From the NCBI GenBank assembly GCA_023443725.1, contig JAEZTF010000004.1:38971-102970 (forward strand): a DNA stretch of 64,000 bases, given 5' to 3'. The stretch is from Candidatus Parcubacteria bacterium. Lineage in GTDB: Bacteria > Patescibacteriota > Microgenomatia > UBA12405. Position numbers: made by a program. How positions within the stretch are numbered: position 1 is the first letter of the stretch; each line of letters begins with the position of its first letter. This document shows, piece by piece, positions 42,001 through 51,000 of this stretch.

Positions 42001-45000
42001 GTTGATAATAATGAAATTAAGAAGGAAAACTTGAGTGAAGAAGTTGTCAAACGATTTGAAGATGTTTTTGATTGGATAGATCAAAAAATTAAAATAAATT
42101 TATGACACATCAGAGTGAATCACAACTAGAAACAAACTTAATACAACAGCTCCAAAGACTTGGTTTTGAAAAGGTGGCGATAAAAGACGAAAAGGAATTG
42201 ATTGAGAATTTAAAGAAACAATTGGAAAAATTTAATGGGATGGAATTTTCTGATGGTGAATTTTCTAAGATTTTAAATCACCTAAACAAAGGTGATATTT
42301 TTCAAAAAGGAAAAACTTTAAGAGATAGGTTCGTATTGGTGCGCGATGATGGAAAAGAAATTTGGATAAGATTTTTTAATACTGACCAGTGGTGTAAAAA
42401 TGAATATCAAGTCACCCACCAAATTACTGAAGTAGGAAAATACGAAAACAGATATGATGTTACCTTACTGATTAATGGTCTACCGCTAGTGCAAATTGAA
42501 TTGAAACGACGAGGAATTGAAATGCGAGAAGCGTTTAATCAAATTCAGCGATATCAAAAACATTCTTTTGCCGGAACACTGTTTGAATATATTCAAATAT
42601 TTGTAGTATCAAATGGAGTCAACACAAAATATTTTGCCAATAATCCAAAACAAAGCTTTGAACAAACATTTTTTTGGACTGATGTATTGAATAAAAAAAT
42701 TACTAGATTAGAAGATTTTACAGATATATTTTTGGAAAAATGTGCTGTTTCTAAGATGATTGCCGAATATATTGTATTGGCTGAAGCAACACAGATACCA
42801 ATGATATTAAGACCTTATCAATATTATGCGGTCAAAGCAATTGTGGATAGGGTAAAAGAAGGCAACAAGAATGGCTATATTTGGCATACAACTGGATCTG
42901 GTAAGACACTCACCTCTTTTAAAACTAGTCAGGTATTGGCTCGAGTTCCAGAGATTAAAAAAGTTTTATTTGTGGTGGATAGAAAAGATTTAGATGTGCA
43001 AACAATTAAAGAATTTAACTCTTTTTCAAAAGATTCAGTCGATGGAACTGATAACACTCGACAATTAGTAAAACAATTAAAAGACGAAAATACTAAGGTG
43101 ATTGTAACCACAATTCAAAAACTGGATATCGCTATTGGCAAAGAAAAATATAAGAATCAATTTGAAAAATTAGTTAATGAAAAAGTAGTAATTATTTTTG
43201 ATGAATGTCATCGAAGCCAGTTTGGTCAGGTCAATGCTAGGATAAAAGCTTTTTTTAAAAATGCTCAACTATTCGGTTTTACTGGGACGCCAATTTTTGC
43301 TGAAAATAATGTGGGCGGAGTAACGACAACTGATGTATTTGGTGAATGTTTGCATAAATATATTATTACCAATGCTATTTCTGATGAAAATGTTTTAGGA
43401 TTCGCGGTCGAATATGTGGGCAAATATAAACAAAAAGACAGTAATACTTTAAATAAAGATATTTTTGCTGAGACACTGGTAGAAGGAATTAATACTAAAG
43501 AGGTATTGGAAAGTGATGATCGGTTAAATAAAATTACTGATTATGTATTAGCTGATTGGAAAAGAAAAACTAAAAACGGTATGTTTAGCGCCATGATGGC
43601 AGTGTCAAATATTGAAGTATTAAAAAAATATTATTGTTTATTTAAAAAGAAAAAACCAACAGATTTAAAAATAGCCACGATTTTTTCTTATCAGATAAAT
43701 GAAGATGACAATATGGATTTAGAAACTGATATTTTTAATCAGGCCAATGAATCAATAAATAAACATTCACGAGAATTTTTGGATGACTGCATTGATGATT
43801 ATAATAAAGAATTTTTAACAAATTTTTCGACAGATACTTTTTATAATTACTACAAAGATTTACAAACTAGAATTAAAAATAAAGAAGTGGATTTAGTATT
43901 GGTGGTCAATATATTCTTGACTGGATTTGATAGTAAAACTTTAAATACTTTATATGTAGATAAAAATTTGCGATACCATGGGTTAATTCAAGCTTACTCT
44001 AGAACAAACAGACTATATAACTCTAATAAACCACACGGCAATATAGTTTGTTTTAGAAATTTAAAAGAAGCAACTGATGAGGCATTGAGATTATATGGAG
44101 ATGAAAATGCTAAGGAAGTGGTTTTCAAGAAACCGTTTGAGGAACAGAAAAAAGAGTTCGAAGAAAAATTGAAATTACTAAAAGAAAAAGTAGCTACAGT
44201 TGATGATGTTGATAATTTAGAAAGTGAAACAGAAAAAGCTGAATTTGTAAAAATATTTAGAAATTTGTTGAGAATAAAGTCAGGATTAGAAACTTTTGCT
44301 GAATTTAATTTTAATGATTTATCAATAACCGAACAAGAATTTTATGATTATCAAAGTAAATATTTGGATATTTATGAAGACCGAAAAAGAAGTGAAAATA
44401 ACGCCGAATCCATATTAGACCAAATTGATTTTGAAATTGAACTAACTGTCCGAGACATAATTAATTTTGATTACATAATATTATTAATTGCTGGACTAAA
44501 AGATATTGATTCTGATGAGATAAAAAAGAAAAAAACCGATGAAATATTAAAGATTTTTGATCGAGATATTCAATTAAGAAAGAAAAAAGATTTAATAAGA
44601 CAATTTATTGAAGAAAATTTACCAAAAATAAATGGAAAACATGAAGTAGAAGCTAAATTCAATCAATTCTGGAATGATGAAAAAAATAAAAAATTACAAA
44701 ATTTGGCTATAAAAGAAAATATTCCAATAGAAAAATTAGAAGGCTTGATAAATGAATATTTATTTAATCAAAGACTACCAAGAAGCCAACAAATAATTGA
44801 TTCTATGAATACTGCTCCAAAATATTTAGAAAGAAAAACAATTATAGAAAGAATTAAAACAGCTATCCAAAGTATAGTGGATGTATTTGAATGGTAAAAA
44901 CATTAAAATAATTTATGTCTCTTTATCAAATAAAAAACCAAAAGCTTCAAGCAATCAAAGAAGTTGTTTTTGAAAAAGAAAAACCACTTCATGATTTAAT

Positions 45001-48000: not shown

Positions 48001-51000
48001 CAAAAGATAAATTTATTAACGTTTTTTATCAATATTTGAAAGAAAATGGTTATGGTTTTATTAAAATAAAATATTTTGAAAAAATAGGTTCAATATTAGA
48101 AGAATTGGATATTTTTAAAGATTATAAAAAAACCATAAAAGATTTAAATATTCTTAATAAAGAATTAAAAAAAATTCCTTTATTGAAGAGGTTACGAAAA
48201 GATTTAGTTGATTGTAATAATTTTTTATACGGAATATCATTGTCGCTTTATGAAGATAAATGGCTATATAATTTAGAATCGTCAAATCCATCGCAAGCAG
48301 TTGTGCTTCAGGATTTTATCAAGGTACAACAAAGATTAAATTCCAATGTTAGATTGGGAAAAGAATTCTATCGTTTAAAAGAGAGAGCTATGCAATTAAT
48401 GACAAAATTAATTGAAATACTACCTATTTGGGGAGTAACGAATCTTTCTGCAAAAGATTCTATACCACTTAGTGGTGGTCTATTCGACTTGGTTGTTTTA
48501 GATGAAGCTTCACAATGTGATATTCCATCTTCAATTCCTCTTCTATTTAGAGCAAAAAGAATGATGATTATTGGAGACGATAAACAATTAACACATATAT
48601 CGATTATTCCTGAAAGAAAAGATAAAAATTATTTTGATGATTCTGATGTTAATTTGGATTGGGATGCTTATTCTTATGTAAAACAATCTCTTTTTAAAAT
48701 AGCTGATAGACAATATTCTCTAAATGATAAAAGGACTTTAATATTAAAAAATCATTATCGATGTCATCCGGAAATTATTAATTTTTCAAATAGAGAATTT
48801 TATGGGGAATCATTAGATATATTGACGGATACAGATAAATTTAAAGCTGAAAATCCTGGAATTTCTTGGTTAAATTTAAAAGGTAATGGTAAACGAGTTG
48901 GAGCTGGAAATATTTATAATCTTATTGAAGCTACAAAATCGGCTGAAATTATGGCAGAAATAATTCAAAAATATGGTAATTCTTTGTCTTACGGAATAAT
49001 TTCACCATTTAGAAAACAAACTGCAATTATAAGAGAAAAAGTTTTGAAAATATTAACTGATAAATCAACTGATGAATTAAATAATATTGATCTTATTGTT
49101 GGAACTGCTCATGCATTTCAAGGAGATGAAAAAGATGTAGTAGTATTTTCTCCAGTTATATCTCAAGGGATGCCCGAAGGAACAATTAATTTTGTTAATG
49201 AGAATATTAATCTCTTAAACGTAGCTGTTACTAGAGCTAAACAAAAATTAATTATTGTTGGAGATTTGGAATTTGCTTTAAGTAAAAATGGTTTATTAAA
49301 AAAATTAGCTAATTATGTGATTGATCTTGATCATGTGATTAATAAATAAAATATGAAAATAAAATTATTAAATGAATTTGTAAGGTTAATAGAAAATTAT
49401 TTTATAAAAGTTAACGATAATGAATTGTTTTTTTATAGCGCTGAAGCAAAAAAATTAAGATCACAATTAATTGGATTATTAAACGAAATTGAAGAAGATA
49501 TAAATAATCTTTTAGATAATCAACGACTAATAGAAATTAACTCAAATAGTTACATAAATACTTTAACTTCTGCTTTGTCTGAAGATTATAAAAAGGCTGT
49601 ATATTGTTTAAATATTTTATTATCTAGTCTTAAAAAATATAAAGAAAATAGTAAAGAAATAATTAAATCTAAAGAAGATATTTTAGATTTAATAAAAAAG
49701 GGAGAAAATAAATATTTTGAATTAAAATCATCTTTAAGATGGGATTATAAAAATAACAAAGCTAATAAAGATTTAGAAAAGATAATATTAAAATCAATTT
49801 CTTCGTTCGCTAATGGTCAAGGTGGAACTTTAATTATTGGTGTTGACGATGAGGGAAATATTTTAGGATTAGATAAAGATTATAAGTGTTTAAAGGGAAC
49901 CAAGGATGAATTTGAGTTGCACTTAAGAAATCTAATTAATGAATATTTTGGAAAAAATTTTTCAGTATCTAATGTAGATGTGGATTTTTTCATTTTTGAA
50001 GACAAAGAAATTTGTAAAGTAGATATTTTAAAATCTAATAAACCACTTTTTTTATTGGACAAGTTTTATGTTCGTAATGGAAACTCATCTAGAGATTTGG
50101 GGATAAAAGAAATTACAGAGTATTTAAATGAAAGATTTAATTAGGTGGTAGTATTGGATAGTGATTAAAAAACCAGTTTTTTTATTTTTCTTATTGGGAT
50201 TAATTTTTACCGCCTTAAATTTCTTTTTTGGAGACAAAACTACGATTTTTGATAACTTATCTGTTTTGTTTTGTTTGTGTTTGGTAGTAAGTGCACCAAA
50301 AATATTAGATAATTTTTTAATTAATTACACAAAAAAATCAGCTTGGGTAATAGTTTTTATTTTTACAGCGATTACTCTTTGGATAGTTACAATTTTTGAT
50401 GTTGAAGGCTTGTTGAGAGATATTGTTAATTTTTGTTTGGCAACTGGTTTATTTTCTTTTGTTTTATATCTGTTACTTCCCATAATTAGGGGTATTTTTG
50501 GTTTGATCAAAAAAATTAAATGGAAGTTTGTTCAAAAATTTGTGGCTTATATTGAGAGACTGTTGGCACCGGTTTATTTGTTTCCAATAAAACTGGTTAC
50601 CTATTCGGCTTATTACATAATAAAATTTTCTGTTAAATTGGTGATTGAATTGGCCAAAATTATAATTGATATGGTTAAATTCCCTTTTAAAAGTTTTAGA
50701 AATTTTTTGAAGTCATTGGTGATATTGACGGTAACAATATATTTGATTGGATCGACTTTTGTGATGGTGGATTATATGCAAAAAAATTATGGATATTATG
50801 AAAAATTCTTTTGTTCGGCGGGGAAAAAAGAAAAATTAAAAAAATCAGTGGTGAGAATTGTGGGTGGATATTCTCAAGGTACGGGATTTTTTATCTCCGA
50901 AAATCAAGTGTTGACTAACTTTCATGTAATTAAAGGAGAGCCGAGTCCAAAAATTATTTTTCCTGATGGTAGTTTTATAACTCCGATTAAAATTACAGGA

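Follow-up and report, generated by a model that had tools for sequence, protein, structure and literature searches.

The DNA analysed here, referred to as the window, is a stretch of 64,000 nucleotides (nt) from contig JAEZTF010000004.1 of a Candidatus Parcubacteria bacterium, and the subject of this work is a pair of genes, encoding a superfamily 1B (SF1B) helicase and a Schlafen/AlbA_2 protein, that lies downstream of a Type I restriction-modification (R-M) operon. An earlier note on this DNA had taken the four co-directional genes that follow hsdR for a single phage-defence module. Four open reading frames (ORFs), designated g1 to g4, do follow hsdR directly on the + strand, with coordinates that agree exactly with those of the earlier note and with spacers, from hsdR onward, of 17, 1, 48 and 3 nt, in DNA with a GC content of ~29-30% (Table 1; the genes further downstream are g5 to g7). 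Since these ORFs are long, give strong profile matches and have conserved homologues, they are, judged from sequence, real genes rather than chance ORFs, and the domains that had been assigned to all four hold in Pfam, PADLOC and NCBIfam profile searches. Promoter and terminator scans were uninformative in this AT-rich DNA (89 promoter-like sites versus 108 expected), and this applies equally to a TTTAAA-17-TATAAT match at 46600-46628 that ends 3 nt 5' of the helicase ATG.

Table 1. Features of the window, with the two core genes first (positions are those of the window; aa, amino acids).
Feature	Coordinates	Strand	Evidence or remark
g3, SF1B helicase, 905 aa, core gene 1	46632..49349	+	AAA_11 and AAA_12
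Helicase N-domain, aa 1-262, proposed sensor/docking	46632..47417	+	alpha/beta fold
Imperfect tandem duplication in N-domain coding sequence	46743..46785		22 bp, 2 copies, 86% match; probably trivial
g4, Schlafen/AlbA_2 protein, 263 aa, core gene 2	49353..50144	+	PF04326
g1, PDC-S18 candidate (NucS-like PD-(D/E)xK N-domain and DUF5655)	44915..45832	+	separate element at Type I R-M 3' end
g2, Cas4-like PD-(D/E)xK nuclease, 249 aa	45834..46583	+	island backbone, neighbour
Type I R-M operon: hsdM, 199-aa gene, hsdS, OLD-family ABC-ATPase/TOPRIM nuclease, hsdR	36906..44897	+	profile searches
199-aa gene between hsdM and hsdS	38487..39086		no family match
OLD-family ABC-ATPase/TOPRIM nuclease between hsdS and hsdR	40309..42105		AAA_15 E 4e-25; PADLOC AriA/Old/GajA-like
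hsdR	42102..44897		directly 5' of g1
g5, membrane-anchored trypsin-like serine protease	50161..51747	+	Trypsin_2 E 1.8e-20; neighbour
g6, 211 aa, possible third component	51740..52375	+	homologues downstream of Schlafen gene
g7, 199 aa, neighbour	52375..52974	+	present in window, L004 and L003 only
DUF2726 gene (PD-(D/E)XK superfamily)	36297..36941	-	left border of variable R-M island
Alpha-2-macroglobulin homologue, 1635 aa	27901..32808	-	Hint/intein-like insertion

The genes that stay together are the helicase gene and the gene that follows it. As shown in Table 2, the helicase is followed by a partner gene at a distance of -8 to +7 nt in all eight genomic contexts of the helicase clade (A to H), and this is the sole invariant of the neighbourhood. 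The partner is an AlbA_2 gene in 7/7 AlbA_2-type contexts (A to G) and an adaptor-HEPN gene in the L007 lineage (H), and the helicase and AlbA_2 genes constitute a conserved and apparently translationally coupled pair. R-M genes are found within 10 kb of the pair in six of the seven AlbA_2-type contexts; in the seventh (E), DUF2130 and HNH genes are the visible neighbours. The family is very rare. The close helicase clade comprises only ~10 clusters (90% identity) that are at least 41% identical to the window helicase among 5.8e9 proteins, and an exhaustive HMMER search of 1.84e9 proteins with the N-domain of g4 yielded 6 representatives. Genome and metagenome scans with the helicase alignment returned, among the matches listed, only homologues of ~30% identity and one 41% locus that duplicates L008, and scans of viral contigs for the helicase and for g4 gave no match.

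Table 2. The eight helicase-clade contexts (helicase identity is to the window protein).
Context	Locus	Helicase identity	Gene order
A	window/L001	100%	Type I R-M, OLD, PDC-S18, Cas4-like, helicase, Schlafen, g5, g6, g7
B	L004-6	63%	different Type I R-M, PDC-S18, GmrSD, Cas4-like, helicase, Schlafen, g5, g6, g7
C	L186	64%	HinfI R-M, Cas4-like, helicase, Schlafen, contig end
D	L003	74%	Type ISP R-M, TM0106-like nuclease, DUF2130, helicase, Schlafen, g6, g7
E	L187	73%	DUF2130, helicase, Schlafen, g6
F	L097/98	59%	Type ISP R-M, DUF2130, helicase, Schlafen, g6, FtsK-like
G	L096	86%	MmeI-type R-M, unannotated 215-aa gene, RNase_H_2-domain 497-aa gene, XseA, XseB, helicase, Schlafen, contig end
H	L007-9/L016	41%	helicase, 252-aa adaptor-HEPN gene, Cas4-like, 228-aa gene

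The pair also behaves as a cassette. Context B belongs to a sister strain of the window organism, and when the proteins of the window were compared with those of L004, identities were 98% for PDC-S18, 95% for the Cas4-like protein, 63% for the helicase, 43% for the Schlafen protein, 92% for g5, 98% for g6 and 92% for g7. At the DNA level (100-nt windows), identity is 88-97% across the Cas4-like gene, falls to 50-80% at 46572, in the spacer between g2 and g3, stays there across both genes of the pair, and is back to 91-98% at 50186, at the start of g5. The pair is thus a sharply bounded hypervariable cassette between flanks that are ~95% identical; loci that diversify under conflict typically show such exchange of alleles between conserved flanks. 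Exchange has reached inside the pair as well: the helicase of context F is closest to that of B (68%), yet its Schlafen protein is closest to that of E (82%), and the window helicase is nearer to that of D (74%) than to that of C (64%), while the window Schlafen protein is nearer to that of C (61%) than to that of D (44%). The helicase and Schlafen trees disagree in a manner that indicates recombination within the module. A further relative, L010, retains the same chromosomal frame (85% identity to the window for DUF2177, 67% for DUF2726, 90% for the Cas4-like protein and 57% for MatE) and has neither the helicase gene, nor the Schlafen gene, nor g5 to g7.

The helicase of the pair is of the Upf1/Dna2/Mov10 type (Pfam AAA_11, E 1.4e-24; AAA_12, E 1.3e-31). 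It carries a family-specific N-domain of ~262 aa, whose fold has no recognisable relative, and an insert of ~270 aa between Walker A and Walker B, and profile searches found no nuclease domain in its 905 aa. The motifs GPPGTGKS, DEASQ, GDxxQL, HYRxH, QGDE and TRA are invariant in 11 clade members; these motifs are intact, and an active helicase is predicted. Even the best matches in PADLOC and NCBIfam are partial ones that do not extend beyond the core (MkoC, 3.5e-60; MkoA, 1.7e-48; PDC-S37, 2.6e-40; Hhe, 1.3e-25; IGHMBP2; ProA), and the match to PF09848 is confined to the P-loop (residues 279-328, profile positions 4-55 of 354). Full-length homologues at ~30% identity share the helicase N-domain (phmmer E down to 4e-19) and are 990-1130 aa long, with a C-terminal DUF559/MTES_1575 Vsr-like DNase. 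In 160 loci fetched from among the matches listed, 134 of 153 complete helicase copies are of this long type, and no g2-like or g4-like gene was found beside the long-type helicases. The original definition of the MTES_1575 DNase goes back to giant HEPN-helicase-Vsr proteins, which today bear the name Hhe, and fusions of HEPN, SF-I helicase and Vsr domains have been described (PMC3710099). The window clade looks like a derivative of a large single-chain family with the order N-domain, helicase and Vsr-like DNase, related to the Hhe, Mokosh and PDC-S37 cores, in which the fused DNase would have disappeared and the effector, a Schlafen RNase or, in one lineage, a HEPN one, would be provided in trans. 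Another relative, the 908-aa protein P0051 (29% identity) in the region 6001-9479 of L179, also has no fused Vsr-like nuclease; an SNase-domain gene lies 78 nt 3' of it (PADLOC C3a212-like, E 1.4e-20), whose product does not share the g4 adaptor, and this arrangement may represent a further variant of the helicase family with its effector in trans.

The second protein of the pair consists of a private helical N-domain (residues 1-116) and a SLFN_AlbA_2 domain (PF04326, residues 118-248, E 7.8e-19, 68.8 bits versus a cut-off of 25.3). A phmmer search of the PDB found SLFN13, SLFN11 and SLFN12, and the AlphaFold2 model (pLDDT 88) shows the helical N-domain followed by the AlbA_2 domain. When the AlbA_2 domain was compared by Foldseek, it matched the bacterial protein DIP2311, SLFN13/14/5/12/11 and the SAMD9 tRNase, with a probability of 1.00 for the SLFN and SAMD9 structures. 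The residues E118-x4-E123-L-K125 and GVDD165 (GVxD) are kept in all six full-length family representatives, and correspond to the Ex4(E/D)xK active site by which the bacterial Schlafen tRNases are defined (PMC13056530). By fold, catalytic motif and defence neighbourhood, the protein is assigned to the prokaryotic Schlafens (pSlfn), and RNase activity is predicted for it.

The N-domain of g4 is also found joined to a different, HEPN-like domain. Five of its six representatives are full-length proteins, all with an AlbA_2 domain, and the sixth is an 87-aa fragment. Residues 1-86 of the 252-aa protein that takes the partner position in L007 align with the g4 N-domain profile (hhalign probability 96%, E 2.6e-9), and its C-terminal domain is HEPN_Swt1-like (E 0.0012), with an Rx4H motif (RNAFMH) and a match to PADLOC PDC-M34B (E 3e-6). 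Two unrelated RNase folds on one adaptor, beside orthologous helicases, are what would be expected of an effector module that docks to a partner which stays the same.

The Cas4-like gene (g2) is not a constant neighbour of the pair. Its product matches PDDEXK_1 (E 4.5e-13) and falls below the Cas4 cut-offs (PF01930, 20.5 versus 22.7 bits; TIGR00372, 33.5 versus 65). An N-terminal Cys and a C-terminal CxxC cluster had been described for it; the C-terminal CxxC is there (C236-x2-C239), but the N-terminal element is itself a CxxC (C35-x2-C38) and C223 is additional, and all of these cysteines are 97-100% conserved in 120 relatives. It was rejected as a Cas4 on the scores and for want of cas genes and a CRISPR array: the window contains no CRISPR-like array and no Rfam CRISPR match, and no cas gene is present among the ORFs profiled between 36.9 and 53.0 kb. 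The family is very large and unusually conserved (more than 8000 matches, 58-96% identical across metagenome-assembled genomes (MAGs), the best 120 being 66-96% identical), and its named members come from MAGs of Shapirobacteria, Paceibacterota, Magasanikbacteria and Clostridia. Such MAG names, which also go with more distant relatives of the helicase, suggest together with the GC content of ~29-30% that the host is probably a Patescibacteria/candidate-phyla-radiation bacterium. In nine contexts sampled from the g2 side (including L010, L012, L014 and L180-L185), none has an Upf1-type helicase or an AlbA_2 gene, so g2 leads a life of its own. The six of these contexts that were examined in detail comprise a Type ISP R-M system with radical SAM and Fic genes; an EcoRI methylase with GmrSD; a housekeeping stretch from MreBCD-PBP2 to RsmE; a ResIII/TnsA-like gene with a PIF1 helicase; an SMC-like ATPase with an integrase; and NOV_C/DUF3644 with T5orf172. 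On the viral contig L180, a PIF1/RecD-type SF1B helicase lies directly 3' of the g2 homologue. From the helicase side, g2 is beside or near the pair in contexts A, B, C and H and not in D to G.

These data do not support the four-gene unit that the earlier note had drawn, nor its description of g2 and the helicase as a split Dna2. Like Dna2, Cas4 and AddB, the g2 protein has PD-(D/E)xK, QxxxY and conserved cysteines and an SF1B helicase beside it, but its CxxC...C...CxxC arrangement differs from the canonical C...CxxCx5C, its Cas4 scores are below cut-off, and its linkage to the helicase is neither conserved nor obligate. Because the co-occurrence check did not uphold that linkage, the split Dna2 is an analogy only. 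The g2 family is a stand-alone one, found mostly at the edges of defence or mobile regions, and in the window lineage g2 behaves as island backbone; shared hot spots may explain why it recurs beside the helicase in three lineages, and the family may be a single-gene defence or DNA-processing candidate by itself.

What did stand of the earlier proposal, besides the conserved pair, is the setting. By its gene content, the locus is a defence island: an OLD-family nuclease gene lies within a Type I R-M system, and PDC-S18 comes next. The genes hsdM, hsdS and hsdR all lie within one operon, as in a Type I R-M system, the OLD-family gene overlaps the start of hsdR by 4 nt, and the R-M genes, OLD-family nuclease and PDC-S18 are located 0.8-12 kb upstream, so that known defence genes lie within 10 kb of the Schlafen gene. 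The PDC-S18 protein (g1) has a weak NucS-type PD-(D/E)xK N-domain (E 0.003) and a DUF5655 domain (E 5e-10), and matches the PADLOC PDC-S18 profile (PDLC04945) over its full length (E 1.9e-97, residues 1-299 of 305, profile 1-301 of 302). PDC-S18 is a defence candidate family, for which a literature search found no paper using the name, and in our reading of the contexts g1 is a single-gene element separate from the helicase pair. It is present in contexts A and B only and absent from the six others, and in L004 (5554-6471) a GmrSD gene splits it off from the remaining genes. Since it is 98% identical behind two different hsdR genes (28% identity), PDC-S18 behaves like a conserved anchor on the 3' side of Type I R-M cassettes that can be exchanged. 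The DUF2726 gene at the left border of the variable R-M island occupies the same place in the syntenic relative L010 (2430-2951), with the Cas4-like gene as the right border in both. Further to the left, residues 796-910 of the alpha-2-macroglobulin homologue are its Hint/intein-like insertion (PT-HINT, E 3.5e-12), which separates the bait region from the A2M domain.

Downstream of the pair, a g6 homologue is found 3' of the Schlafen gene in 5/5 contexts with downstream sequence. It directly follows the AlbA_2 gene in L003, L187 and L097/98, and g5 intervenes in the window and L004 lineage only; identity of g6 is 98% in L004 and 60-65% between lineages (L003, L187, L097/98). The g6 and g7 genes overlap, and neither product has a significant Pfam, PADLOC, PHROG or PDB sequence match. 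In L098 g7 is replaced by an FtsK-like gene, and it is replaced in L187 also. The g5 protease, which is absent in L003, L187 and L098, begins with a long membrane region of several helices and has an additional domain at its C-terminus, and its gene overlaps the start of g6. Upstream of the helicase, a DUF2130 gene lies 89-102 nt away in L003, L187 and L097/98, where it is 81-90% conserved and takes the position that the Cas4-like gene holds in the window lineage; DUF2130 belongs to the PD-(D/E)XK superfamily (Steczkiewicz et al., PMC3424549).

Taken as a whole, we consider it fairly probable that the functional unit is the two-gene cassette at 46632-50144, in which the helicase senses infection and licenses an abortive-infection Schlafen RNase in trans. 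The intact helicase motifs, the Schlafen catalytic site, operonic coupling, cassette behaviour, effector swap and island setting are observed. In the mechanism that we propose, the helical N-domain of g4 would dock the Schlafen protein onto the helicase, as its co-inheritance and the domain swap suggest, and the helicase would detect phage-derived single-stranded DNA (ssDNA) or RNA through its own N-domain and ATP-driven translocation, by analogy with SLFN11, whose tRNase is activated by ssDNA binding to the helicase domain (work cited in PMC13056530, as presented there). The helicase would then release or activate the Schlafen nuclease, which may cleave tRNA or rRNA and so bring about translation arrest and abortive infection, as would be expected from the characterised bacterial Schlafens, which are proven phage-activated tRNases with modular sensors (PMC13056530, PMC13462974). 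A fuller version, which we hold with slightly more doubt than belief, is that of a self-sufficient anti-phage pair in which an Upf1-type helicase reads invader nucleic acid and activates a trans Schlafen tRNase via the adaptor, making it a split, independently evolved equivalent of SLFN11 with interchangeable Schlafen and HEPN warheads. In a bolder extension still, the neighbouring PD-(D/E)XK nuclease and g6 would be loosely coupled further subunits.

Several points weigh against the two-gene interpretation. The defence role, the RNase activity and the contact between helicase and Schlafen protein are all predicted from genomic evidence, and docking through the N-domain is argued solely from co-inheritance and the domain swap. 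For L007, the HEPN match scores below the Pfam gathering threshold, recombination between helicase and Schlafen alleles speaks against a tightly co-adapted interface, and the sample is small, with 8 contexts in ~5 lineages, all of them low-GC metagenome contigs. In addition, the gene upstream is always one of a nuclease family (g2 in contexts A to C, DUF2130 in D to F, XseAB in G) and, where downstream DNA is visible, a g6 homologue is always found there, so that the true unit may be larger.

The larger units can be weighed on the same contexts. If the system were helicase, Schlafen protein and g6 (with or without g7 and g5), g6 could be, for example, an inhibitor or antitoxin, or a trigger receptor. 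This would agree with its constant place after the Schlafen gene, in two lineages with a different upstream gene, with the block helicase-Schlafen-g6-g7 being all that L003 and the window have in common, and with the loss of g5 to g7 together with the pair in L010. However, g6 is 98% identical between the window and L004, against 43% for the Schlafen protein and 63% for the helicase, so its place is outside the cassette that is exchanged, with which it does not co-vary. In one lineage the protease gene separates it from the Schlafen gene, the HEPN-type L007 locus has no g6, and no domain or motif is recognisable in the protein. We regard its membership as doubtful. We think it less probable still that the unit comprises three genes, nuclease, helicase and Schlafen, in which the adjoining PD-(D/E)XK nuclease (g2 or DUF2130) and the helicase would form a Dna2/AddAB-like end-processing or DNA-degrading arm and the Schlafen protein a suicidal arm. 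In its favour, g2 immediately precedes the helicase in the window, in L004 and in L186 (where the three proteins are each ~61-64% identical to those of the window) and lies downstream within the same operon in L007, DUF2130 of the same superfamily takes the upstream place in L003, L187 and L097/98, the PIF1/RecD-type SF1B helicase follows a g2 homologue on L180, and the ancestral single-chain relatives carried a fused DNase. Against this stand the independent distribution of the abundant g2 family, one of whose nine sampled contexts is a housekeeping stretch; its persistence at 90% identity in L010 without the pair; its 95% conservation versus 63% for the helicase; spacers to the helicase of 36-153 nt, compared with -8 to +7 nt between helicase and Schlafen genes; the exonuclease VII genes that occupy that position in L096; and the fact that DUF2130 and g2 are unrelated families with backbone-level conservation (81-90% and 95%).

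The remaining alternative, to which we give very little weight, is that the locus has no part in defence and encodes a lineage-specific housekeeping RNA or DNA module (tRNA or rRNA turnover, quality control), or a repair helicase with an AlbA_2 protein acting as a regulator rather than a nuclease. Upf1-type helicases work in RNA surveillance in eukaryotes, and many AlbA_2 proteins carry a regulator annotation. Of the bacterial Schlafen genes, about 30% have no known defence gene nearby (PMC13056530). But an extremely rare and patchy distribution, the absence of the pair from the syntenic relative L010, hypervariability and allele exchange within conserved flanks, R-M systems beside the pair in most contexts, the effector swap to HEPN and a conserved catalytic Ex4ExK...D site all argue against this reading.

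Among the known systems closest to the two-gene cassette are the prokaryotic Schlafens (Perez Taboada et al. 2026, PMC13056530; Cash, PMC13462974), with which g4 shares the AlbA_2 domain, the Ex4(E/D)xK motif, the defence-island location and a modular logic of sensor plus effector, and among which it belongs to those with an additional domain that Pfam leaves unannotated. The pSlfn described there are single polypeptides fused to a sensor (HisKinase, Ig-like, DUF262, Csx15 and others), whereas in this pair a separate protein, the 905-aa SF1B helicase, would be the sensor, and the Schlafen protein has only a helical adaptor of ~116 aa. A helicase-partnered Schlafen architecture is not mentioned in the main text of PMC13056530, and no helicase-partnered two-gene bacterial Schlafen system was found described in the literature that could be searched. 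The pair would thus be a new helicase-partnered variant of bacterial Schlafen defence and of the Hhe/Mokosh-type helicase systems.

The earlier note had also compared the helicase and AlbA_2 genes with the group III Schlafens (SLFN11/13/14), which likewise combine a Schlafen RNase with an SF1 helicase-type ATPase. The functional parallel stands, split in trans, and the pair resembles the human antiviral Schlafens in a bacterial form divided over two genes; the helicase, on the other hand, is of a different family. Because there are two genes (in the order helicase, then Schlafen), a single-lobe domain versus the N-lobe plus C-lobe core, and AAA_11/AAA_12 rather than PF09848, the resemblance is convergent and not orthologous; membership in group III was rejected on the separate genes and the P-loop-only PF09848 match. 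With Hhe the helicase has a related SF1 core in common, and its relatives carry the same MTES_1575 Vsr-like DNase, while in the L007 variant the helicase has a Swt1-type HEPN RNase as its partner, a combination that Hhe has in cis. Hhe is, however, one protein of ~1800-1900 aa with DUF4011, HEPN and Vsr, whereas the window helicase has no DNase and its RNase is a separately encoded Schlafen; an assignment to Hhe was rejected (NF042953, 95 bits versus a cut-off of 2000, with the match limited to the second helicase lobe). Mokosh and PDC-S37 provide the best PADLOC matches of the helicase core and have the theme of an Upf1/Mov10-type helicase with a nuclease effector in common with the pair, but the alignment covers the core only (MkoC profile positions 424-962 of 1136). 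An assignment to Mokosh was likewise rejected, as the locus has no phospholipase D (PLD) nuclease and no MkoB-like partner.

Bacterial Schlafens have reportedly been shown to be antiviral tRNases only in 2025-2026, and to our knowledge all those characterised carry the sensor in the same chain. The locus enlarges the sparse list of defence systems in candidate-phyla-radiation bacteria, and two further candidates, the stand-alone Cas4-like family and g6, are flagged by it. The swap from Schlafen to HEPN and the descent from helicase-Vsr fusions illustrate effector exchange in helicase-based immunity and link Hhe, Mokosh and pSlfn. If the proposed function is true, the helicase-plus-Schlafen logic of SLFN11/13/14 would also have arisen in bacteria, as a small split pair, and this pair would be a two-protein model in which the licensing of a Schlafen nuclease by an SF1 helicase that senses nucleic acid could readily be studied.

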